Of a stretch of DNA of 64,000 nt, positions 5,951 to 57,720 are shown in pieces. The stretch covers positions 37,071 through 101,070 of the IMG/VR virus record IMGVR_UViG_2889388703_000001. One strand, written 5' to 3'. The notes beneath the pieces are model-generated. The model was given only the letters and a program-made list of their open reading frames with translations. It did no database searches and was not told the origin of the DNA. The position numbers and the translations under genes were made by a program. Position 1 is the first letter of the stretch; the number at the start of each line of letters is the position of its first letter. Source of the DNA: a virus (taxonomy: Duplodnaviria > Caudoviricetes).

Positions 5951-6346
5951 TCATCCTTCTTTCGTGTCTCCTTTCTTCTGGTTATATTCTTTGTTTATTG
6001 AGTCTTTGAAAAGTTCTGCTTCCTTTTCTTTCATGCGGCGTTTCATTTCTTCGAGTACAGCAGCTTCTACCAACTGCCGGTTTTTCTTGACGATGGAAGC
6101 CCGCTCATAATCTTCATCTTTCACAAGCTGTTCGATTAGCCTGTTCTGTGCGTCGATGTAAACCGCGTCAATGGTGTGAGAGCTGAATTTTATGTAGTCG
6201 TCAATTTTGAGAACGGCGTGCTCCAGGTTGTCTATTTTCTTCTCGTTTCGTGTCATCCATCGCGAGATTGCCCGGTAGATCAGGAATAGCGCGGTGGAGT
6301 TAATGCAAACAAAAACGATGCTGATTATTAAGTCTGCGGTATTCAT
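5951..6346 (-). CDS. membrane-anchored protein with UVR-like motif
   Basis: N-terminal TM helix; LVKDEDYERASIVK resembles the UvrB/C coiled-coil motif. Confidence 0.6.
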   Translation of the reverse strand: MNTADLIISIVFVCINSTALFLIYRAISRWMTRNEKKIDNLEHAVLKIDDYIKFSSHTIDAVYIDAQNRLIEQLVKDEDYERASIVKKNRQLVEAAVLEEMKRRMKEKEAELFKDSINKEYNQKKGDTKEG

Positions 6347-29000: not shown

Positions 29001-31809
29001 CAAGTGCTGTACTTACTCCTGATGCGGTCTTTTCAGCCGCTTGTTCCTGAAGTTTTTCCTTTAAAAGCAACGATAGCCTTTCACGTATTTTAGCGTTTAC
29101 AAGTTCCTGTGCAGCAGAAAGTTTTTCGTTACTGTCAGCTTCCGTAAGGAGGAATCCTATATAATCTCCATATCGGTCATTTATCTGGTTGATAAGTTTC
29201 AGTTTTACATCCTTTTCCTGATTCTCTTTCTTTGCCCCTTCAAAAAGCGCATCTACACGAAGCCTTTCACGCTCAAGTTCCTTGTTGTAATCATTGGTGG
29301 CTTTTGTAATATCGCTAACTTTTGTCAACAAATCATATACAGCATAACCAAGCGTAGTTATTCCGGCAACCACAAGTCCAATTACATTTTTTTTCATGGC
29401 TGTATTCAATGCAGAAAATCCTTCCTTCCACAACGTTGTATATGTACTTGCTGTGAATATTGCCGCACCTGCCGCTTTTGCTGCAACCGTAAAAGATGCA
29501 AGCCCAAGAACAAGTGAAGTAACTGAAGTTTTAAATACTTCTGCTCCGTCAGATCCGCTTTTTAACCATTTTACAAAATCAAGTAGCGTGGATAGAAACT
29601 CTTTTAGTCTTTCTACGGCATTTGAATTAACGAATGTTTCCTTTATTTCGTTGCCAAGTCGGTTTACTATACCAATGGCACTTTCCTGTTTAATATTTGC
29701 TTCATTGGTCACACTAGTGGCTTCAGCGTACGCCTGGCGTGATAATTCTACACGAGAACGAAGTACATCAGTGTTCTGTGAAAGCGTAGTGATAACTCGG
29801 TTCATACGCTCTCCCTCGCTCCCAAATTCTTTCATTATAGGAGCTAATGCCTTCAATCCATCCTCTTCACTCATCCCCTTCAACTTACCCAGAACAACCA
29901 GCATAGCATCCATGGTTTTACCTGCGCTTATCATGTCTTCAAGGACTTTATCATCTATACCTACAGCCATAGCGATTGACCTTGTATTAGTCTGTAATGC
30001 AGATATAAATGAGGTAAGAGCCGTACCTGCCACTTCCGCGCTTTCAGCATTTTCATCCATAACCGCACCGAGAGCTGCCATTTCCGCCATAGTAATCTTG
30101 GATACGCTTGCCACAGAGCCAATACGGTTAATAATATCGGTAATAGGTCCGGCTGTGGCAGAACTTGCAGCAGACAATTCATTGATAGAACTACCAATAG
30201 CCAATAAAGCTTTTTCTGTTCCCAGAAGTTTACCTTCTCCTGTAAGATTGCTGATTTTTAGAAGGGTGTTTACACCTTCATTACCAAGTTCATTTAATGC
30301 AATAGTAAGCTGATCTGCCGCACGCACAAATCCAAGCACATCTTCCTCCGTTTTCAGACCTGCCTGTCCAGCCGAAGCCGCAAGACTATAAAGCTGTTCC
30401 TGCGCCGTTCGTGTGTCTATCTTATCTATGTTTTTTGTAAGATTCGCAATCTCTTCACTGGAAAGCCCGGTTGTTTTCTGGATGTCAGCCATGCTGTCGC
30501 TAAGTTCAAAATTCGCCTGAGCCATTTGCTTTATACGCCCGACGATTTCATTGAATCCGGCGTAAACCAGCACATACGATGTAAGTCTTTTCGCTGTAGC
30601 TACAATCTGGTTGTCGTGCTCCTGCCAGCTTTTTTTCACATCGTCTATCTGTGCACTTACCTGACGAAGCTTAGCTGATGTCTTTACATACTCCTCTGTA
30701 CGTCTGGTTGACTCCGTTAGTTCTTTCTGCAATTGTGCGGCAGCCTGTTGCAATTCTTCAAGCGGAGCCGTACGCAAGCGTTTCATTACATCGTCTACAT
30801 TTACAAGCTTATTGGAGACCGCCTGCTCTGCAGATTCAATATCCTTAAAAGCATTCCTTATTTTATCCAGTTGCTTCGTGTCGCCCACTTTTAACTGGCT
30901 TTGATAGTCCTGCAATGTTTTTTTCAACTGCTGAAGGTCTTCGTACGTCCCGTCAAAAGTACCCATTCCAACTTTACCGGCCTTGTCGAGAGCTTCATCC
31001 AGACTTATAACTTCATCAGAAGTAGTCTTTATTTTCCCATTAAGCGTGGCAATAGCATCTTCGACCTCCTTTATTCCCTTTGTGTCGCTGATTTTAAGCT
31101 TCTGCTTGTATTCTTCAAGCAATTTGATAGCCTCTTTCGTCTGCCCGATAGTCCCGTCAAACGTCCCAGTCTGAACTTGTCCCAAAGTGGTTTTTGCCTG
31201 CTGAGTCACCCTCCTCGATTGCTCCATTTCCACCGTGCGAAGCTGTTCTGAGAATCTGGCCATTTCCTCAGTTCCTTCCTTGGTAGTTCCCATCACTTCC
31301 TGTAAACGCTGGCGAAGCGTTGAAAGTGCCTTGTCGGATGCATCGCGTATATTCCCGAATATTGTAGCGAAACCTTCTATATTCTTCTTACGACGCTCAA
31401 GCTCTTCCATGATTTTGTTCAGCATGGAAGCGTTATATTGCATTTTTTCAAGGTCTTTAGGGTCTGTTCGTGCAAGCTGCTGCTGATAATAATTACGGCT
31501 TGACTTTAAGTTACGTTCCGTTTCACCTGAAAGGTCGCTTAACTCCTTTGATATGTTGTATATCTGTCTTTCAGTATCCCTTATGACCTTATTCATGGAC
31601 TTGAAACGTTTCTCACTTTCCTGTATTTTTTTCCCAAGTTCATCATAAGCTTTCGGATCAAGTTCAAAAAGCTGCTGCTGCTTCATGGACTCTATCTCCT
31701 TCGACAGTTGAGCAGCTTCGTTCTTCATTTCCTGAAGCTGCTTTTTTGCCTGAGTAGTTCCGCCTATATATACGTCTATTCGTGCTTGTTGGTTCCTGTT
31801 GTATGCCAT
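26035..31809 (-). CDS. tail tape measure protein
   Basis: 1924 aa, helical; MADIQKTTGLS...AEVAGTA core; hydrophobic segments. Confidence 0.9.
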   Translation of the reverse strand: MAYNRNQQARIDVYIGGTTQAKKQLQEMKNEAAQLSKEIESMKQQQLFELDPKAYDELGKKIQESEKRFKSMNKVIRDTERQIYNISKELSDLSGETERNLKSSRNYYQQQLARTDPKDLEKMQYNASMLNKIMEELERRKKNIEGFATIFGNIRDASDKALSTLRQRLQEVMGTTKEGTEEMARFSEQLRTVEMEQSRRVTQQAKTTLGQVQTGTFDGTIGQTKEAIKLLEEYKQKLKISDTKGIKEVEDAIATLNGKIKTTSDEVISLDEALDKAGKVGMGTFDGTYEDLQQLKKTLQDYQSQLKVGDTKQLDKIRNAFKDIESAEQAVSNKLVNVDDVMKRLRTAPLEELQQAAAQLQKELTESTRRTEEYVKTSAKLRQVSAQIDDVKKSWQEHDNQIVATAKRLTSYVLVYAGFNEIVGRIKQMAQANFELSDSMADIQKTTGLSSEEIANLTKNIDKIDTRTAQEQLYSLAASAGQAGLKTEEDVLGFVRAADQLTIALNELGNEGVNTLLKISNLTGEGKLLGTEKALLAIGSSINELSAASSATAGPITDIINRIGSVASVSKITMAEMAALGAVMDENAESAEVAGTALTSFISALQTNTRSIAMAVGIDDKVLEDMISAGKTMDAMLVVLGKLKGMSEEDGLKALAPIMKEFGSEGERMNRVITTLSQNTDVLRSRVELSRQAYAEATSVTNEANIKQESAIGIVNRLGNEIKETFVNSNAVERLKEFLSTLLDFVKWLKSGSDGAEVFKTSVTSLVLGLASFTVAAKAAGAAIFTASTYTTLWKEGFSALNTAMKKNVIGLVVAGITTLGYAVYDLLTKVSDITKATNDYNKELERERLRVDALFEGAKKENQEKDVKLKLINQINDRYGDYIGFLLTEADSNEKLSAAQELVNAKIRERLSLLLKEKLQEQAAEKTASGVSTALGNIKQGLQETQGISDVRSDEALRVVQQIVNRDIKKPVDEIVKQVYATLREKFSTEGNAYTYQDFFKVSEGVRDYINVLKDYDKAVDSAVTETEEKINAANQDVKAANTKMLNAITSEWNELQKVKTDSLNENQLLEHNEKLKKAANEYIKIAKQQISLLSGEEKQQLQSYVDFYEKAISQVEKTSKQKEPNIWGYGRTIDDASVDQLVAKYKQFFAERTSMRKDADYSTAYAKEFKDRAEAMDWYMKKLKEIEAQLNKMGYNTSGELLNDKSGSRGEKREMNDEMTAALSALEAYFVSRETLIKERRANEEITEQEMNRQLEANEFEHLNARIKLRRSFLGDMESLSKEEMKTYGLDGKDLEKLSKYLLDKGQAMQDGIRLKLVEDELKMREDLLKHQEAIRKILLDNDYTGQVDKEFMSAIDKLELLFGKQEEMTEESGIRRMNILRSMSQEAYLIDVEEFRKRIEAQTEFSEWRKDKTTEDYQALLYMLQKYNDDYEAAENRAIERRKKIAEKKWEKSGQKEDWQTRTDESQANVDLMQTASGLGLASDSMVEDAKLEYYKLRIEASKAYLEQMEQEMQMEVDKAYQEKLLADAKLEEVEGTDLEADYRDRSLEANAAYEAAKRAQMQMTLDARQKLNEAMNDLDNQEMEIQERKLNTLKEYTDAIVDFSGQMGEAAFGEVEDRKQAAQQLIQTTMNLTKQLIMQKIQELLTKKALKKQEVAIEQSGNQSIVQSAGSTIISGLAASEKGMGGKITGAIAGGSAKIIEELGWWGIPLIAVISAALNGLMGLAMGAFTKSKQEVAAVTGASSSSKGRVAAGMLTYAEGDYPVLGNDGQIYNARYQKELKTGVYGRGAHFGIFSEKKPEMIVDGDTTQKLILNYPHIYESILTIARHGQLKSAAMPTFASGNYPSMPAQITQVASGATDMTMQNEQMTQMLGSVAEALSTLNERLSKPISATVDPYGSKGAVNQLNKASNFMTKRGLIK

Positions 31810-37069: not shown

Positions 37070-37156
37070 TCATCTTTTTCTCATAATTATATCGCCCACC
37101 ACATTTGCCAGCACATTAGAGCCAAATCCTCTTATCCCGTCAAGTTGAGCTACCAT
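37070..37156 (-). CDS. small peptide, or +1 extension of the upstream gene
   Basis: MVAQLDGIRGFGSNVLANVVGDIIMRKR; frame stays open upstream across the previous stop. Confidence 0.4.
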   Translation of the reverse strand: MVAQLDGIRGFGSNVLANVVGDIIMRKR

Positions 37157-41067: not shown

Positions 41068-41643
41068 TTATGCAGAAGCCAGAACCCCGGCCTTTTCAAG
41101 CTCGTCAATCAGCTTGTTCAGTACGGTATGTGCATCTTCCGAACCTGTAGCATCTGTTACATGGGCACCCTGCTTTACAATTCCGGGCTTTGCTGTTGTA
41201 GCATTGGTATATGTGGTGTCTGTCCAGTTTACCGTGACATACGCTTTACCTGCTCCGTCTACTCTTACAGCATAGTTCTTTCCGCTTTCTGAAAATCCGG
41301 TCTGGATTCCTCCCAAAGCAGAGTCGCTGGCTTTCGGGAGCACATAGCTTTCACCTCCTCCGCCACCACCGGCTGCTGCGGTATCCTTGATGACCAATGC
41401 CTTGACTTTTTTCACCTCCACATCGCTCAGAAGCCGTACCTTCATGCCGGCAGGTACATTGATTTCAATTACTGAATTTGTGAAATTCACCGTATCCATT
41501 GCGACGGGTTCCATGGTGTCAATAAACTGGGAGATTGAAAGCCTTCCGCTTTTCACACCCTGAATCTGCACCATTGTACGTCCTTCGGAAGTATATTCGG
41601 CCACATAGCCTTCAGCTCCCTTCTTAAAACTGATTTCGTCCAT
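41068..41643 (-). CDS. head-fibre-like virion protein
   Basis: YVLPKAS.SALGGI, ATT...GIVKQ and LN.LI..L..AGVLA motifs; Gly linker. Confidence 0.55.
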   Translation of the reverse strand: MDEISFKKGAEGYVAEYTSEGRTMVQIQGVKSGRLSISQFIDTMEPVAMDTVNFTNSVIEINVPAGMKVRLLSDVEVKKVKALVIKDTAAAGGGGGGESYVLPKASDSALGGIQTGFSESGKNYAVRVDGAGKAYVTVNWTDTTYTNATTAKPGIVKQGAHVTDATGSEDAHTVLNKLIDELEKAGVLASA

Positions 41644-42919: not shown

Positions 42920-43004
42920 GCCGCTAAATTACAAAAAATATTTATATCCGAATAAAATGGGTATGTTTTTTTGATAATTGAATGCTTATTTGCATTTTGA
43001 AACA

Positions 43005-43080
43005 ATAAAAAGAAGGACGGATGCGCAACACTTTGCTCCGCCCTTCAAGCCAAATAAAACAAACCTGCAATTAGGTTTAT
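43005..43080 (-). ncRNA. candidate sRNA 2, complementary to the recombinase 5' UTR
   Basis: TATATTTG box at 43094-43087; terminator 43012-43046 plus U5; 43048-43066 repeats 43148-43166 (18/19). Confidence 0.5.
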
Positions 43081-43169
43081 TTATTACAAATATAACTATT
43101 TCTTTTACAGATATTGCTTTTTATGTAATTTTTTTCTAACTTGTGATAGCCAAATAAAATAAACCTTCT

Positions 43170-44309
43170 ATGAACAAAATCAAGTATTCTATCTGCGTCA
43201 AAGAATTTGATTCAGGTATGTTCAGCGTATATGTGCGCTGCGAACAGTTCGGTAAAAGTATCTTAATTGATACAAACGTACATGTGTTTCACGATGAATG
43301 GGATGGTGAAAACGGACTTATTATCCGTAACCCAAATGCAAGGAAACTTAATCTGTTTATCCGTAAAACGCTTTATCAGCTTGAAGAGTATGAGCTTGAT
43401 TACGACGGAGAGTTTACACTTTCAAAGCTGAAGGAAATATGGGATGGGCGTGAGTCATCTAATGACTTCTATTCGATGATGGAATATCAGATAGAACACC
43501 GCGATATTCGCGAAGGAACAAAAGGAATACACCGGCGTGTGCTAAAGCATCTCAGGAAATTCTGTAAAGAATGTTCAGTTTCCGATATTACGGAAGATTA
43601 TGCAAAGGGATTTATACGCTATATGCGTGAAGCCGGTCTGAATCAAACTACAATAGGTATGCAGATACATGTGCTTAGGTGTTATTATAATATTGCCAGG
43701 AAATTGTTTGGCAACAAGGTCCCTTCCGGTAGTTTCGACTTTTATCATGAAAAACTTTCAGACCGTCTGAAATATAAAATGAAGTCGCTAACTGACGATG
43801 ATATTCGTAAAATTGAAAATTACATAGCACGTACCGACACTCCATCACGATTCATTGTTACACTTGACAGATTCCTTTTTATGGCTTACACCGGAGCAAG
43901 AATATCAGACTTTGCTTCATTCTCCCCGAAAAATTTCACCATAGAAAATGGGAAAATGTGGCTTACCTATACTTCCATAAAGACAAATACAGGCGTTAGG
44001 ATACCTATTTCTTCTATATTCGACGGAAGAGCAGAGCAGATAATAAATAAATATCTTTACAGGCTTGATGATTTTTTCGGTATAAAAAAGGAATTGTTCA
44101 ATGCCAGATTAAAAACTGCTATAAAACATGCAGGTATAGATAAGAATGTTTCAGCTCATGTGGCTCGACATACTTGTGCGTCAAGACTTGTAAACAAAGA
44201 TGTTCCTGTTACTACAATACAAAAGGTAATAGGTCATAGAAGCTTAAAAATGACAATGGTATATGCACAGACAAGTGAAAGCACTCTGATACGACAACTG
44301 TCTATTTAA
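43170..44309 (+). CDS. tyrosine recombinase (probable DNA invertase)
   Basis: YTGARISD, HVARHT, IGHRS and MVYA catalytic motifs; arm-binding/SAM-like N-terminus; adjacent to IR-flanked segment. Confidence 0.9.
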   Translation: MNKIKYSICVKEFDSGMFSVYVRCEQFGKSILIDTNVHVFHDEWDGENGLIIRNPNARKLNLFIRKTLYQLEEYELDYDGEFTLSKLKEIWDGRESSNDFYSMMEYQIEHRDIREGTKGIHRRVLKHLRKFCKECSVSDITEDYAKGFIRYMREAGLNQTTIGMQIHVLRCYYNIARKLFGNKVPSGSFDFYHEKLSDRLKYKMKSLTDDDIRKIENYIARTDTPSRFIVTLDRFLFMAYTGARISDFASFSPKNFTIENGKMWLTYTSIKTNTGVRIPISSIFDGRAEQIINKYLYRLDDFFGIKKELFNARLKTAIKHAGIDKNVSAHVARHTCASRLVNKDVPVTTIQKVIGHRSLKMTMVYAQTSESTLIRQLSI

Positions 44310-44312
44310 TTA

Positions 44313-44361
44313 GAACAAAAGAAAAGTGAAGATTATTTTTATCTTCACTTTCCTTTTGTTC
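44313..44361 (+). terminator. hairpin after the recombinase, insulating the silent cassette
   Basis: GAACAAAAGAAAAGTGAAGAT...ATCTTCACTTTCCTTTTGTTC. Confidence 0.65.
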
Positions 44362-44362
44362 A

Positions 44363-44773
44363 GTGGGAGGACTTATATGGAATATAGATATAAAACGAGC
44401 TTTCGGAAGAAACTCTGTAGGGAAAGGATATATATGTCAACTATTTACGTTTAAAGGTTCATACGGGTATTCTTCTATAATTTTTAGAACAGTATTAGGT
44501 GGGTATTATGGCTCACAAATAACGAGAAGTGTCACAATTACATGCACTGCAAATGGTGCTTTTAAAATTGAAGGTAATGGCAGTGATACAACAAATGCCG
44601 GACTTAGTTTATTTTATAATAAAAATGATGACGGCATAACATTCTATGTTGGAGGAAATAAATCTTCTCTTATCACACCATTTTCATGCGAAATTCTACA
44701 ATATGACGGTAATGTTAGCATACAAAATAAAATTATTGAGAGTGATACTACAAGTTTAACACCTTTAATATAG
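44363..44773 (+). CDS. silent alternative C-terminal cassette of the tail-tip protein
   Basis: Frame begins exactly at the IR (VGGLIWNID...); no ATG start or leader. Confidence 0.75.
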   Translation: MGGLIWNIDIKRAFGRNSVGKGYICQLFTFKGSYGYSSIIFRTVLGGYYGSQITRSVTITCTANGAFKIEGNGSDTTNAGLSLFYNKNDDGITFYVGGNKSSLITPFSCEILQYDGNVSIQNKIIESDTTSLTPLI

Positions 44774-44779
44774 GATTTT

Positions 44780-44801
44780 TTCCACCTCGGCTGAGGTGGA
44801 A
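44780..44801. terminator. hairpin between the two convergent cassettes
   Basis: TTCCACCTC-ggct-GAGGTGGAA. Confidence 0.7.
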
Positions 44802-44815
44802 GGAATATTATACCT

Positions 44816-45160
44816 TTATACCCATCTACCCCATGCAGATCCTGAATTTATTCTAACCAACTTATTACCTTTTGTATCATAAAAACGCTGAATTCTATAT
44901 CCGTATGCCAAATTAATGTCTACAAACAATACTCCGGTTGAACTTCCTGGTATATTATCATTTCCTGCTCCAACGGAGTATATTCCTGCTTCCAAGTCAT
45001 CTATAGTTTGACTTGGAGACACAGTCCCACCTTTGGGGAAGCACCAGTCTTTAGATGCTAAACCGTTCTTCGTTGAGGTGGCCACTCCAATAAGTCCTCC
45101 CACAACTGATATTATCTCCGGATTTTGAATCGCTTCCTTTAAACTTTTTTTCTGTATCAT
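44816..45160 (-). CDS. tail-tip/receptor-binding protein, expressed variant (knob-like C-terminus)
   Basis: Start MIQKKSLKEA; IR inside the gene; GIYSV..NIP...GVLFV...IQRFY...W..W; last gene of the tail operon. Confidence 0.7.
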   Translation of the reverse strand: MIQKKSLKEAIQNPEIISVVGGLIGVATSTKNGLASKDWCFPKGGTVSPSQTIDDLEAGIYSVGAGNDNIPGSSTGVLFVDINLAYGYRIQRFYDTKGNKLVRINSGSAWGRWV

Positions 45161-45200
45161 AATCGTAATTTTTAAGTTTTTCAAATTTATATATTAAATA

Positions 45201-46115
45201 TTATCCATTAGGATATATGTCTTCATATTCTCCTACTCCAAGTATTTGTTCTTTATTGATTGCAATGACAGTCCATAATGTTCCACCAGTCCTCGTTGCT
45301 GGTGATGCAAAAAAAATTCCTACTGACATAGCCGGTATAACCAATTCACCTGGTGCTGTTTTAAGAGATAAGTTATTGTAATTAAAATTATATACATATA
45401 AAAACTGACCATTCCATCCTTCTCCTGCAGGCATAACAAATGCGTCTTTATTGGTTTGTGTCGGTATGGTAACATAATTAGAATATCTAACACCTTTTCT
45501 GGAGATATAAAATAAATTACTACCATCAGATTGTCTTTTTATTATAGGGCCCATATAATAATGGCTCTCAAATCCAAGATATTCTACATTAGCTCCCAGT
45601 CTTACATTTCCTTCTGAATCAAAAGTAATTCCTTCTTTTAAAAGGCTATCTTGTTTCGCGATAGATCCACTTCCATCCTCGTTAAAAGCAATTTTCCCAT
45701 TTGCGATATTCACACTTCCTTTAAACGAACCAGTAGCTGCTTTTAATTCTCCAGAGAACGTGCCATCTGCACCATCTAAATGCTTAACATATAAACTGTC
45801 AACATCTATTTGGTCTGCATTTATTTTTTCAGCAAGCAATAGTTTCGTTGCAATAAAAACCCACTCTTGTGCGATTTCCCAAAATCCCTTTTGCTGAGAA
45901 ACAGATGTAATAGGATCATTAACACCAGATATAGATGTATGAGATACAAGGCACAGATATAATTTACTCTTATACAACACAACATCGTAAAATAATTCAT
46001 CTTTCTCTCCAGATAAATATTTCACGTTTACATCCCAGTCTCGCATACGGAGCTTAGCTCCTTTGTTCCCTTTTTGGATATATTTAACCTCTGCCGTTTT
46101 GCTTGCTAATGTCAT
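45201..46115 (-). CDS. tail fibre protein
   Basis: DVVLY...YLCLVSHTS, FIATKLLLAEKI.A..I, GTFSGEL..ATGSF.G; AT-rich variable C-terminus. Confidence 0.65.
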   Translation of the reverse strand: MTLASKTAEVKYIQKGNKGAKLRMRDWDVNVKYLSGEKDELFYDVVLYKSKLYLCLVSHTSISGVNDPITSVSQQKGFWEIAQEWVFIATKLLLAEKINADQIDVDSLYVKHLDGADGTFSGELKAATGSFKGSVNIANGKIAFNEDGSGSIAKQDSLLKEGITFDSEGNVRLGANVEYLGFESHYYMGPIIKRQSDGSNLFYISRKGVRYSNYVTIPTQTNKDAFVMPAGEGWNGQFLYVYNFNYNNLSLKTAPGELVIPAMSVGIFFASPATRTGGTLWTVIAINKEQILGVGEYEDIYPNG

Positions 46116-46117
46116 AC

Positions 46118-47173
46118 CTACTCCTCCGTAGTTATTGTTACAGCCACATTACCGGATGCCTGTTCACACATAGCTTCAGTTACGGTTCCGGTTGCAGCTG
46201 GCGTAGTTGACGTACTGGTATTAAGTATATTTCCTGCACTGTCCGTGAAGACGAAATAGAACCTCATTTCTTTGTACTTAGTTGTACTCCCCCTCTTCAC
46301 AAGGATAGGCGAATAGACTACAGTACCACCGCTTCCCTGCTCAATCGTTTCACTCTCTGGATTGGGGTTGGTAATAATATCGAACGGGTCAGAAGCATCT
46401 ACTACCGTCTGAACATCCATTCCGATAAGACTCCCATCCTGGAACACCTCGACCTTGAATTGACCTGTGGTATCTACCATGTCATTGGTAACAGTAAGAT
46501 TCTGGCTTGTCTGTCCACCAATCTGCTGCCAGCTGCCAGACTGTAACGTGTACCACTTGTATGTCAACGAAGTGTTCAGCTGTTCGCTGCCCACGTAAGC
46601 CATAGCCTTGAGTATACAGGAGTCTCCCTTATCAGTCAGTGTAAAGAACTTGTTGTCACCGGCCATAATGGTAACGCGCTTACTGTTACCCACACCTACA
46701 GTGACAGGTATGCTGTAAACGCACTGTATCTTGTCGCTGGTATTACCGACTGCAATAGTCGCTTCTGCTTTAATGTTACATGCAGCACCTGCAGATGCCT
46801 TCACCAGGTTCTTCTTTATCTTCAGTGCAAAATAATTTTGTGTTCCGGAAGAATACGGTACGTTTTCAAAATGGCCTGTTTCGCCACCAAAAGTATTCGT
46901 AGAAAGTTTGTTGCTTCCAAACGTAAGCTCCGTATCATTGAAAAACCATTTAACTGACGAAGGAACCACAATCCCGGTAGCAGCTAAAGAAGAGGTGATG
47001 ATGTAACTCAACATCGGCGTCAGCGTAGTGAAATCCGGAGTGATATTTGTCGGATTATCTGCCGTACCCTGGTACTCCTGATATAAGTCTCCCATGTTTG
47101 ACTGAAGGAAAGGCATATACACGCTACCCTTCCGCACATACACTACTTGTCGTGATACACTTGCTTCACTCAT
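46118..47173 (-). CDS. Ig-like repeat tail protein
   Basis: Beta-rich; TYKWY, LTVT.DMVD; in the tail operon. Confidence 0.6.
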   Translation of the reverse strand: MSEASVSRQVVYVRKGSVYMPFLQSNMGDLYQEYQGTADNPTNITPDFTTLTPMLSYIITSSLAATGIVVPSSVKWFFNDTELTFGSNKLSTNTFGGETGHFENVPYSSGTQNYFALKIKKNLVKASAGAACNIKAEATIAVGNTSDKIQCVYSIPVTVGVGNSKRVTIMAGDNKFFTLTDKGDSCILKAMAYVGSEQLNTSLTYKWYTLQSGSWQQIGGQTSQNLTVTNDMVDTTGQFKVEVFQDGSLIGMDVQTVVDASDPFDIITNPNPESETIEQGSGGTVVYSPILVKRGSTTKYKEMRFYFVFTDSAGNILNTSTSTTPAATGTVTEAMCEQASGNVAVTITTEE

Positions 47174-56214: not shown

Positions 56215-56861
56215 AAGCAATAGAAATATACGAAACAAATGATGGTAGCCGATTCGACAAAAAAGCAGAAGCTATTAAATATGAAGAACTGTGCGATAAA
56301 TGCAATTCGATAAATCTAAAACTCGGAATATTAGCACGTGACTTAGAATCAAATGAGTATATACAGCATGATCCGGAAGTCATAAAAAACACATTTAGAG
56401 AGTTTATGGGTATTGTAGCAGATTCAATACCTGATTATTCCAGCATGGCTATTGAATGTGGTAACGGGGAAAGGCACATGAGTCATATATATCGAGTCAT
56501 CTCTGATTATAACATTATATGCCTTAGCAATTTAATGTTTAGATTTTACTGTATCGACTTTAAAAATGGAAAAGAGTTTCAGCAACCTTACTTCACTTCA
56601 CATCAAGAAAAAGTGACAGTCAGAGTGAAATTAGACAACTGCGAAAACTTCTCCCCCACCTGCGCAACATGCAACAGCTATGGCGACGGGAAATGTACCA
56701 ATTTCGGGAAGGAAGTAAAAACGGAAAATTCCTGCAAATACTATCAGTCGGACGTGATTGAATATACCTGCCAGCAGTGCGGTCGTAAATACGAAATCAC
56801 TGATTCCGATGCTGGAAATCGTGAGAAATTTTGCTGCAAAGCATGTGAAAACGGATATTAA
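56211..56861 (+). CDS. Cys-rich modular hypothetical protein
   Basis: YETNDG..F, KEFQQPYF, CATC, CQQCG..FCCKAC. Confidence 0.65.
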   Translation: MKAIEIYETNDGSRFDKKAEAIKYEELCDKCNSINLKLGILARDLESNEYIQHDPEVIKNTFREFMGIVADSIPDYSSMAIECGNGERHMSHIYRVISDYNIICLSNLMFRFYCIDFKNGKEFQQPYFTSHQEKVTVRVKLDNCENFSPTCATCNSYGDGKCTNFGKEVKTENSCKYYQSDVIEYTCQQCGRKYEITDSDAGNREKFCCKACENGY

Positions 56862-56876
56862 TCAAAACTAAAAAAC

Positions 56877-56936
56877 ATGAGTAAAACCAAATTATATTAT
56901 CTGTTTTTGGCAGCCATGTATGTGGTGTTGTCGTAA
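56877..56936 (+). CDS. 19-aa hydrophobic peptide
   Basis: MSKTKLYYLFLAAMYVVLS with an A-rich leader; fills the intergenic gap. Confidence 0.4.
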   Translation: MSKTKLYYLFLAAMYVVLS

Positions 56937-56947
56937 CCTGTAACAAT

Positions 56948-57169
56948 ATGATTGAAATTATCAAAGAAGGGAAATACAAAAAGAAAATAGCGACCTGCCA
57001 GTTCTGCGGGTGCGAGTTTACTTTCGATAAAAGGGACGTGCAATCCAGGAGTGATGGGGAGTTCCCATTTACAAGAATAGAAAAAACATTGCTATATGTT
57101 TTGTGCCCCTGCTGTAATGCAGAGATAAGAGAGTGGAGTGATTACCAAGAAACCGAAAAACAGAAATAA
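56948..57169 (+). CDS. zinc-ribbon protein
   Basis: CQFCGCEF...CPCC. Confidence 0.7.
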   Translation: MIEIIKEGKYKKKIATCQFCGCEFTFDKRDVQSRSDGEFPFTRIEKTLLYVLCPCCNAEIREWSDYQETEKQK

Positions 57170-57189
57170 ATCCCCAAAACAACATTGCT

Positions 57190-57720
57190 ATGGAATTTAA
57201 ACATCAGAAAGACCTCGGTCCAGACGCCATTCAGAAATGGTGTGAGGAACTGGATGGGAAATCAAAAATAGAAATAAATGATACACAAAGGAAACTACTT
57301 TCCATTTTCAAAATGAATCATGAGATTGTTGGTAATTTCCTGAATGCACATAAAGAACTTTCTTCGCAGTCTGATTACACTTCTTTCATGATAAATCTTG
57401 TCGCTGAAAATTTTCCTTACAAGATAGATTATCCTTCAGCACTTATAATAAGTACACTTATAGACCGTCCGGCCATCGCCGTAATGTATGCCAATTACCT
57501 CCAGTATAAATGTTTCCAGTACGGAGTCAAGGAAATAAACATTGATGCACTGAAACATATATTACTTTGGGAAGGAGTATTCAGTGAAGAAGTCTTGCAT
57601 GAAATGTGGGACAAACAGAAATTTATATCCAGCGACAACCGGCTTCTTAACATGCTTGACTATCCTCAGTACAGAGAGTCTATCAGAAATATTAATACAG
57701 GCGATTATGACGAAAAATAA
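57190..57720 (+). CDS. hypothetical protein
   Basis: 176 aa; WDKQK....NMLD. Confidence 0.65.
   Translation: MEFKHQKDLGPDAIQKWCEELDGKSKIEINDTQRKLLSIFKMNHEIVGNFLNAHKELSSQSDYTSFMINLVAENFPYKIDYPSALIISTLIDRPAIAVMYANYLQYKCFQYGVKEINIDALKHILLWEGVFSEEVLHEMWDKQKFISSDNRLLNMLDYPQYRESIRNINTGDYDEK

Follow-up and report, generated by a model that had tools for sequence, protein, structure and literature searches.

A probable phage-encoded inversion switch exchanging the C-terminus of a tail protein in a 101-kb viral record

At the end of a phage tail gene cluster, two short sequences in opposite orientation enclose a pair of converging reading frames beside a tyrosine recombinase gene, and this locus raises the question of whether the enclosed DNA inverts and in doing so exchanges the C-terminus of a tail protein. 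It lies at positions 43170 to 45160 of the window, the whole stretch of 64,000 nucleotides (nt) that was analysed here (positions 37,071–101,070 of the 101-kb IMG/VR record IMGVR_UViG_2889388703_000001, with a CheckV completeness estimate of 93% for the record). The predicted inversion has occurred, as confirmed by independent assemblies, and the locus is probably a phage-encoded, site-specific inversion switch that exchanges the C-terminus of a tail protein.

Both orientations of the segment in independent assemblies

An inverted-repeat search of the window located GTGGGAGGACTTAT at 44363–44376 on the plus strand and its exact reverse complement at 45090–45103 (14-nt arms, 100% match, 713 nt between the arms and 741 base pairs (bp) from outer edge to outer edge). 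Both copies read V-G-G-L-I in the same codon phase. In one of them, VGGLI forms codons 20–24 of an open reading frame (ORF) of 114 amino acids (aa) on the minus strand (45160..44816; MIQKK...ISV-VGGLI-GVAT), which is the last gene of a minus-strand run of tail genes from 52734 down to 44816. In the other, it opens a plus-strand ORF of 136 codons without a head (44363..44773; VGGLI-WNID), which converges on the 114-aa ORF and has the gene of a 379-aa recombinase upstream on its own strand. No mutual similarity was detected between the two cassettes, and the arithmetic of the fusion was checked, 19 head residues and 136 cassette residues giving a product of 155 aa against the present 114 aa.

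Four sequencing runs (X1–X4) were compared as Logan contigs; runs X2 and X3 offer no more than short pieces of this region, and gaps in them were not interpreted. In an 11,073-bp contig of run X1, the strand of window positions 44377–45104 is reversed relative to both flanks (2 differences in 728 bases) and the inversion joints lie within the 14-bp repeat, while a contig of run X4 carries the segment in the window orientation. When the related loci L023 and L143, taken from separate ENA samples, are compared, a 753-bp segment (98.4% identity) is cleanly inverted, while the flanks are collinear at 95.7% and 99.8% identity. Both show the same layout, with proteins of 653, 386, 106, 351, 333 and 88 aa followed by the switch gene and the recombinase at identical coordinates, and with the segment in opposite orientation one backbone is therefore seen in both states. 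Three independent assemblies thus carry either a near-identical segment flipped (X1) or both states on one backbone (L023 versus L143), and all the both-state evidence came from these. No pair with one cassette in both states was found among the first 19 loci compared.

The protein database holds both products. P0001 (155 aa) equals the head plus the presumed silent cassette at 99% identity, and P0006 (114 aa) is the current form; the contigs that encode these two proteins are L023 and L143. Two more 155-aa relatives of the head joined to the silent cassette (93% and 79%) and two headless 136-aa copies were also found, headless copies being present in the database for both cassettes.

A sequence-only reading of this DNA had described a perfect 14-bp repeat flanking 741 bp, with two convergent cassettes and a hairpin between them, and its coordinates and ORFs were confirmed. 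The in-frame switch between 114-aa and 155-aa products through a 19-aa head, which it had proposed, agrees with both products in the database and both orientations in assemblies; it had named a single orientation in deep reads and relatives, together with a lack of inversion on recombinase overexpression, as the outcome that would speak against it, and both orientations were seen among relatives in contigs. Its link of a tyrosine recombinase to a C-terminal switch in the last gene of the tail cluster is upheld by Pfam domains and conserved adjacency. The features of the locus are as follows.

43170..44309, plus strand: tyrosine recombinase of 379 aa (Pfam domains, catalytic motif, relatives)
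44313..44361, plus strand: terminator-like hairpin ending the recombinase gene, with 21-nt arms (inverted repeat, 95% complementary; terminator scan)
44363..44376, plus strand: recombinase-proximal (distal) site, with the centre GTGGGAG, the right arm GACTTA and a degenerate left arm TGTTCA (repeat, site alignment)
44363..44773, plus strand: cassette apparently without expression, 136 codons, starting VGGLIWNID and predicted to be all-beta (ORF, database proteins, pN/pS)
44782..44799, no strand assigned: GC hairpin CCACCTC-GGCT-GAGGTGG, with stems at 44782–44788 and 44793–44799, inside the invertible segment (inverted-repeat core)
44816..45103, minus strand: apparently expressed cassette, 95 codons plus stop, with the joint VGGLIG and then a predicted knob domain of about 75 aa (ORF, structure model)
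45090..45103, minus strand: head-proximal site, reading with its left arm TCAGTT-GTGGGAG-GACTTA (45109..45091; repeat, site alignment)
45104..45160, minus strand: constant head of 19 codons, MIQKKSLKEAIQNPEIISV (shared head in database proteins)
45201..46115, minus strand: upstream tail protein of 304 aa, whose C-terminal part appears replaceable (comparison with relatives; GC 0.35)

The hairpin behind the recombinase gene abuts the distal site and was matched by the terminator scan at 44323–44351, followed by CCTTTTGTTC. The window form of this hairpin (44313–44361) is the exact reverse complement of that in L005, L007 and other loci; the hairpin of L012 combines the stems of the L005/L007 group with the loop of the window, and the contig of run X4 carries it flipped relative to the window. 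This terminator quasi-palindrome thus appears to flip independently of the main switch. The GC hairpin at 44782–44799 was not flagged by the terminator scan, since no T-run follows it, and may act as a bidirectional stop between the cassettes.

The recombinase, both cassettes and the 304-aa gene form a low-GC island, with a GC content of 0.32–0.41 over window positions 43000–46100 against 0.45–0.51 around it. The tail gene run includes two phrog_3267 tail proteins and a 653-aa tail protein (PHROGs search), and the closest isolate relatives of the latter are all Bacteroides phages (BS-TP2, 60% identity; F1, F2 and F4, 40%). Just upstream of the recombinase start lies a polymorphic 100-bp direct duplication (window 43048–43171), one copy of which is absent from the contigs of runs X1 and X2 and from L143, L023 having both. 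In the lysis region, a 191-aa ORF (window 41068–41643) has a C-terminal stretch that resembles the phi29-type head-fibre family PF11133 below threshold (E 1.9e-4).

Site, recombinase and rival explanations

The 24 distinct site contexts from the window and its relatives align as YAGTT-GTGGGAG-RACTR, an asymmetric 7-bp centre between the short inverted arms CAGTT and AACTG, which is the usual core build of tyrosine recombinase sites. The asymmetry of the centre explains why the site is directional. On the head side the left arm is coding (I-S-V); on the recombinase side it is non-coding, yet GTT is kept there in nine of the ten other contexts. The core GTGGGAGRACT occurs exactly twice in the whole 101-kb record, in mutually inverted orientation (GTGGGAGGACT at 44363 on the plus strand and 45093–45103 on the minus strand), and the reversed control pattern of this 11-nt core has no copies in it. 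Every relative that has the module carries the core at the same two places. When one mismatch is allowed, the window holds three matches, the two exact sites and another at 30155, against 1.41 expected, a count that is not significant alone. The left arm beside the recombinase-side site varies in relatives as (AGTT)n, with n of 4, 3 or 1 (L003, L005 and L008, around 6180–6210); for this variation and for a loss of 3 nt in the window (44356–44364), slippage or imprecise strand exchange is a possible origin.

The 379-aa protein contains Phage_integrase (PF00589; E 1.5e-22, 80.6 bits against a cut-off of 27.1), Phage_int_SAM_5 and Arm-DNA-bind_5 domains in Pfam, and R244, K271, H330, R333, H356 and Y365 were recognised as its catalytic set by motif inspection, not by alignment to a solved enzyme. 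PF00589 was found once in the 101-kb record, making this the sole tyrosine recombinase found there, and the serine recombinase domain PF00239 was not found in the record by a search that recovered it in 12 of 14 control genomes. The best solved relative is the Tn1549 integrase. In NCBIfam neither Rci nor any other invertase family was reached, with 21–25 bits for invertase models against cut-offs of about 220 and only sub-threshold matches of Xer, integron and FimB/E type. The best isolate match was BS-TP2 at 30.6% identity, in a phage collection from which BV01 is absent; a scan of 185,579 species genomes with the recombinase returned only an unrelated Patescibacteria fragment and no prophage or host, and a DNA search of positions 43000–46200 against 50,697 phage records gave no match. 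The recombinase gene stops 54 nt before the distal site. We infer a role of this enzyme in the flip because it holds a constant position a few bases from a site.

We propose that the switch works in the following way. The last gene of the minus-strand tail cluster is small: 19 constant codons come first, codons 20–24 then form the recombination site itself, and a second site, inverted 727 bp away and directly behind the recombinase terminator, heads a promoterless cassette in the same phase. The recombinase would bind the short inverted arms YAGTT and RACTR and catalyse strand exchange in the asymmetric 7-bp centre GTGGGAG, and because the two sites are mutually inverted, the outcome would be a flip of the segment. 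One orientation would yield the 114-aa protein with a pyocin/phage-fibre knob at its C-terminus, and the other the 155-aa protein, which ends in a beta-rich domain unrelated to the knob. Such a switch probably serves to present alternative receptor-binding ends on a tail appendage, allowing a phage population to reach hosts whose surfaces vary; this would entail switching within that population, attachment of the product to the virion and an effect on host range.

Several points weigh against this switch. The orientations were observed in contigs of different samples, not within one population of this phage. The model of the 155-aa product, all-beta, is of low confidence (predicted local distance difference test (pLDDT) score of 54), and Pfam, PHROGs and NCBIfam offered no family for either cassette. 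With an integrase-like architecture that includes an arm-binding domain, and as the only recombinase found in the record, the enzyme could be, or also be, an integrase. In addition, having lost the GTT of the distal left arm, the window copy may flip poorly or not at all.

This last point leads to the rather unlikely case that the switch is real in the lineage and frozen in this genome, the loss of GTT disabling or slowing inversion and locking the phage in the 114-aa state. The window reads TGTTCA-GTGGGAG at the distal site where the near-identical L143 and L023 read TCAGTT-GTGGGAG, a 3-nt deletion of a motif otherwise kept in nine of ten non-coding distal contexts, and L024 and L025, which encode the 155-aa form next to a single site and a different recombinase, represent a naturally locked relative. 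Against a frozen copy stand the intact centre and right arm, a repeat that is perfect over 14 bp, two cassettes that are intact ORFs and the variation of the same arm region in relatives ((AGTT)n, n = 1, 3 or 4); moreover, sites of the R64 shufflon function with one conserved arm only. It is highly improbable that the recombinase is a phage integrase unrelated to the flip, with the inversions made by another enzyme or by rare homologous recombination at the repeat. Its arm-binding domain, its integrase-like architecture, the Tn1549 integrase as nearest solved relative and its standing as the sole recombinase found would fit such an enzyme; however, the gene lies a few bases from a site on different phage backbones, a second clade of recombinases (31–33% identical) holds the same place beside multi-site arrays, BS-TP2 has a second integrase besides the array-adjacent one, and the breakpoints always fall within the site. 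A repeat of 14–17 bp is also short for RecA-type recombination.

Expression of the second cassette in the present orientation is improbable. It would require that the cassette use its own GTG and be made as a free 136-aa protein by read-through of the recombinase transcript, the two states then differing in which domain bears the head. The GTG start, the shared strand with the recombinase, the distance of 54 nt from its stop codon and the headless forms of 136 and 94–95 aa predicted by gene callers are compatible with such expression; a strong terminator-like hairpin nevertheless stands between the recombinase gene and the cassette, the GTG belongs to the conserved site and would not be a selected start, and a gene finder would give headless calls anyway. 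Scarcely credible is a chance match or an assembly artefact as the source of the repeat. Fourteen bp is short, 64 kb should by chance contain about 1.4 matches to the 11-nt core with at most one mismatch, and three or more such matches turned up in 13 of 100 shuffles. Yet only two exact copies occur in 101 kb, they share a codon phase, head two long ORFs, lie beside a recombinase and are conserved, so that chance is not enough to explain them, and an artefact is already contradicted by the use of these copies as the exact breakpoints of inversions in independent assemblies (X1, and L023 versus L143). A phage-encoded inversion switch accordingly remains the probable reading of the locus.

Module, cassettes and head in relatives

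Recombinases 86–100% identical to the present one adjoin the same arrangement of hairpin, site and cassettes on at least three tail backbones, and the order recombinase, hairpin, site, cassette, opposing cassette, site and head is kept in the relatives. The heads differ across backbones (MIQKK...EIISV, METIDF...ETISV and a 100-aa head). A census of IMG/VR with CAGTTGTGGGAGRACT gave 104 stretches, 80 of which were fetched, and the site-bearing arrays in them have two to six sites. Those with three to six sites adjoin the second recombinase clade, from which the clade of the window is distinct. L099 (3365–4815) and L108 (2304–3387) carry one multi-cassette array, permuted differently: the cassette that is joined to the head in L108 adjoins the recombinase in L099. 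Locus L024 (4001–8468) has a recombinase of the second clade, encoded on the same strand, and differs in its lysis module; a DDE transposase lies close by.

Contigs tend to end at these sites. Among the 19 loci whose contig ranges are known, ten end no more than about 120 nt from a site, and in 36 of the 80 census loci a site lies within 130 nt of the locus end with a sharp mode at 44 nt, ten of the 36 ending exactly 44 nt past the motif and six exactly at the motif end. The near genome-length contig IMGVR_UViG_3300045988_164932 (109,941 bp; L009, L051 and L058) terminates at each end 44 nt beyond a site, as though assembly had failed for the invertible segment alone. Such ends may be what a de Bruijn assembler puts out when one cassette has two left contexts, the settings of the assembler not being known. 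Assemblies of these phages from metagenomes are systematically interrupted at the site.

With the 114-aa protein as query, 105 proteins were retrieved. The joint could be placed in 100 of them, 83 of which have the 19-aa head, and the C-termini of these proteins form 41 clusters that show no detectable similarity to one another, hence at least 41 families at one joint. The active cassette was also found without any head and joined to heads of 16, 38, 61 and 100 aa. For the silent cassette, a peptide-pattern scan of IMG/VR found no relative; the protein database did yield relatives.

Recombinase, sites and knob cassettes may, as a tentative extension, constitute a portable host-range module that moves between Bacteroidales phage lineages which otherwise differ and takes its tips from a community-wide pool of dozens of unrelated domains, with the single recombinase here serving as both invertase and integrase; we hold this possible but would not presume it. 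Pointing in this direction are the low-GC island, near-identical recombinases beside different tail backbones, the lack of a further recombinase in the record, cassettes that recur in other phages at other array positions and heads of 16–100 aa on the same joint.

Both cassettes are under purifying selection, the ratio of non-synonymous to synonymous polymorphism (pN/pS) being 0.23 for the silent cassette, against L024, and 0.20 for the active one. In the model of the 114-aa product, residues 40–114 have pLDDT values of 80–95, and the best structural match is the R2 pyocin fibre knob 6ct8 (Z 9.0, root-mean-square deviation 2.4 A over 77 residues), with 6cl6 at Z 8.9. The 14 best structural rows are all phage fibre, receptor-binding-protein or pyocin chains (12 of them, next after the pyocin knob, being phage fibres or receptor-binding proteins: phi812, Pa193, P68, K gp144, Phi11, 80alpha, NF5, Mu and T4 gp34), the Mu tail fibre matching the active cassette at Z 6.5. 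The sequence profile of the active cassette touches the F2-pyocin side fibre at E 0.06, a Foldseek search of the PDB with this cassette gave no match at E <= 0.001, and an ESM Atlas search returned unnamed viral clusters only. The case for a pyocin/phage-fibre knob fold in the active cassette is moderate rather than strong. Because of this predicted fold, receptor binding by the switch protein is plausible.

The proteins encoded upstream of the 19-aa head are of at least five different kinds (304 aa; 299 aa; 333 plus 88 aa; 286 aa; and 307 aa), and those that resemble each other share only about the first 170 residues. Residues 1–172 of the 304-aa protein are 52% identical to the 333-aa form, and the gene is replaced by 1229 other bases in X1 and by the 333-aa and 88-aa genes in L023 and L143; in close relatives, its C-terminal two thirds are replaced. 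The only match of the 304-aa protein in Pfam, PHROGs and NCBIfam was a sub-threshold CBM_5_12. The sequence-only reading had the 19-aa head dock onto the upstream fibre, and docking onto the C-terminus of the 304-aa protein was considered here and dropped, since the upstream protein varies under a constant head. Because the head is constant while its neighbour differs, docking on a variable fibre end is unlikely, and the partner of the head is more probably a conserved tail component.

Comparison with known inversion systems

Switches of the same kind have already been described, and the novelty of the present locus is limited by a 2026 preprint on BV01-like (Salyersviridae) phages of Phocaeicola vulgatus (Research Square, September 2026, PMC13596623). 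These phages carry a tail-fibre shufflon, confirmed by reads, with the directional core TGGGAGAACT beside a recombinase; in BV01 itself, six variants arise from three cassettes within 1.7 kb, at the end of a fibre gene annotated as carbohydrate-binding (PMC13596623). Their core is contained in the present site GTGGGAG(G/A)ACT, TGGGAG(A/G)ACT standing at the cassette starts and at the fibre–cassette junction, and both systems combine a recombinase beside the array with non-homologous cassettes that substitute for the distal end of a fibre gene, in phages of gut Bacteroidales. In the present phage of about 101 kb, by contrast, the switch consists of just two sites and two cassettes and belongs to a separate 114-aa gene, of which 19 aa are constant; its two orientations were seen in contigs, whereas BV01 switching was shown in reads. 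A BV01-like shufflon would have at least three cassettes with multiple inversions, in contrast to the two sites here; relatives with the same site have three to six. Of the term shufflon used in the sequence-only reading, the inversion switch is retained, while the locus itself, with only two sites and two cassettes, is a simple invertible segment, multi-site arrays being found only in its relatives.

For the Rin shufflon of Bifidobacterium prophages, Mavrich et al. (2018, PMC6109161) reported the first tyrosine invertase of a phage to act on a receptor-binding protein; the shufflon has five cassettes, multiple inversions, the site rix (TTCCCTAACCC) and Actinobacteria as hosts (PMC6109161). 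The sequence-only reading knew neither of this system nor of the BV01-like one. Rin and the present system share a phage tyrosine recombinase beside a constant N-terminal part and dissimilar C-terminal cassettes, each preceded by a short asymmetric crossover site; hosts and site differ, as does the number of cassettes, five against two. In the Mu Gin/G, P1 Cin/C and p15B Min systems, too, inversion swaps the host-range C-terminal part of a tail-fibre gene behind a constant N-terminus. These use serine invertases (the Gin, Cin, Min and Pin family), unlike the present record, in which no PF00239 was found; their segments carry the fibre chaperone genes U and U', whereas only the two cassettes are present here, and their constant part is large compared to the 19 aa of the present head. 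The R64/IncI1 shufflon exchanges the C-terminus of the PilV adhesin by the tyrosine recombinase Rci at short sites with a 7-bp centre and unequally conserved arms, and has a plasmid pilus as its target, four segments and seven sites. Tyrosine recombinase, 7-bp-centre site and C-terminus exchange are alike, but the structure concerned is a phage tail here and a plasmid pilus there, and the present recombinase falls below the Rci-family cut-off of NCBIfam.

The cultured phage BS-TP2 (PQ571275.1; L133 and L134; record 56724–57555 and 1–1700) carries an unannotated five-site array with the variant site CTGGAAGRACT, which is not mentioned in the paper describing this phage. Between its gp85 (156 aa), which has a 16-aa head and a joint like the present one, and the integrase gp3 stand four in-frame cassettes in inverted orientation, and the linear record ends exactly in a site. 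The order of tail protein, 381, 103, 349, 325, 91 and 156 aa, recombinase, holin and lysin is shared with the present phage, and the 653-aa tail protein is 60% identical. The differences are the centre, CTGGAAG instead of GTGGGAG, a recombinase 31% identical and five sites, and the array is known there from sequence alone; a scan of BS-TP2 for GTGGGAGNACT found no copy, as its array uses another centre. The BS-TP2 array may serve as a laboratory system for the mechanism.

Gut Bacteroidales use DNA inversion to vary their capsules and surface proteins, and an inversion switch on the phage side that matches these host switches would directly explain how phage and host can coexist over long periods. 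The system reaches beyond BV01-like phages: it extends over 104 viral contig stretches, involves two or more recombinase clades and two or more variants of the site, and places at least 41 tip domains, all unrelated, behind a single short translated joint. Among the known systems, the locus is a minimal two-site, two-cassette member of the kind to which the BV01-like shufflon belongs, placed on a tiny separate gene in a larger phage.

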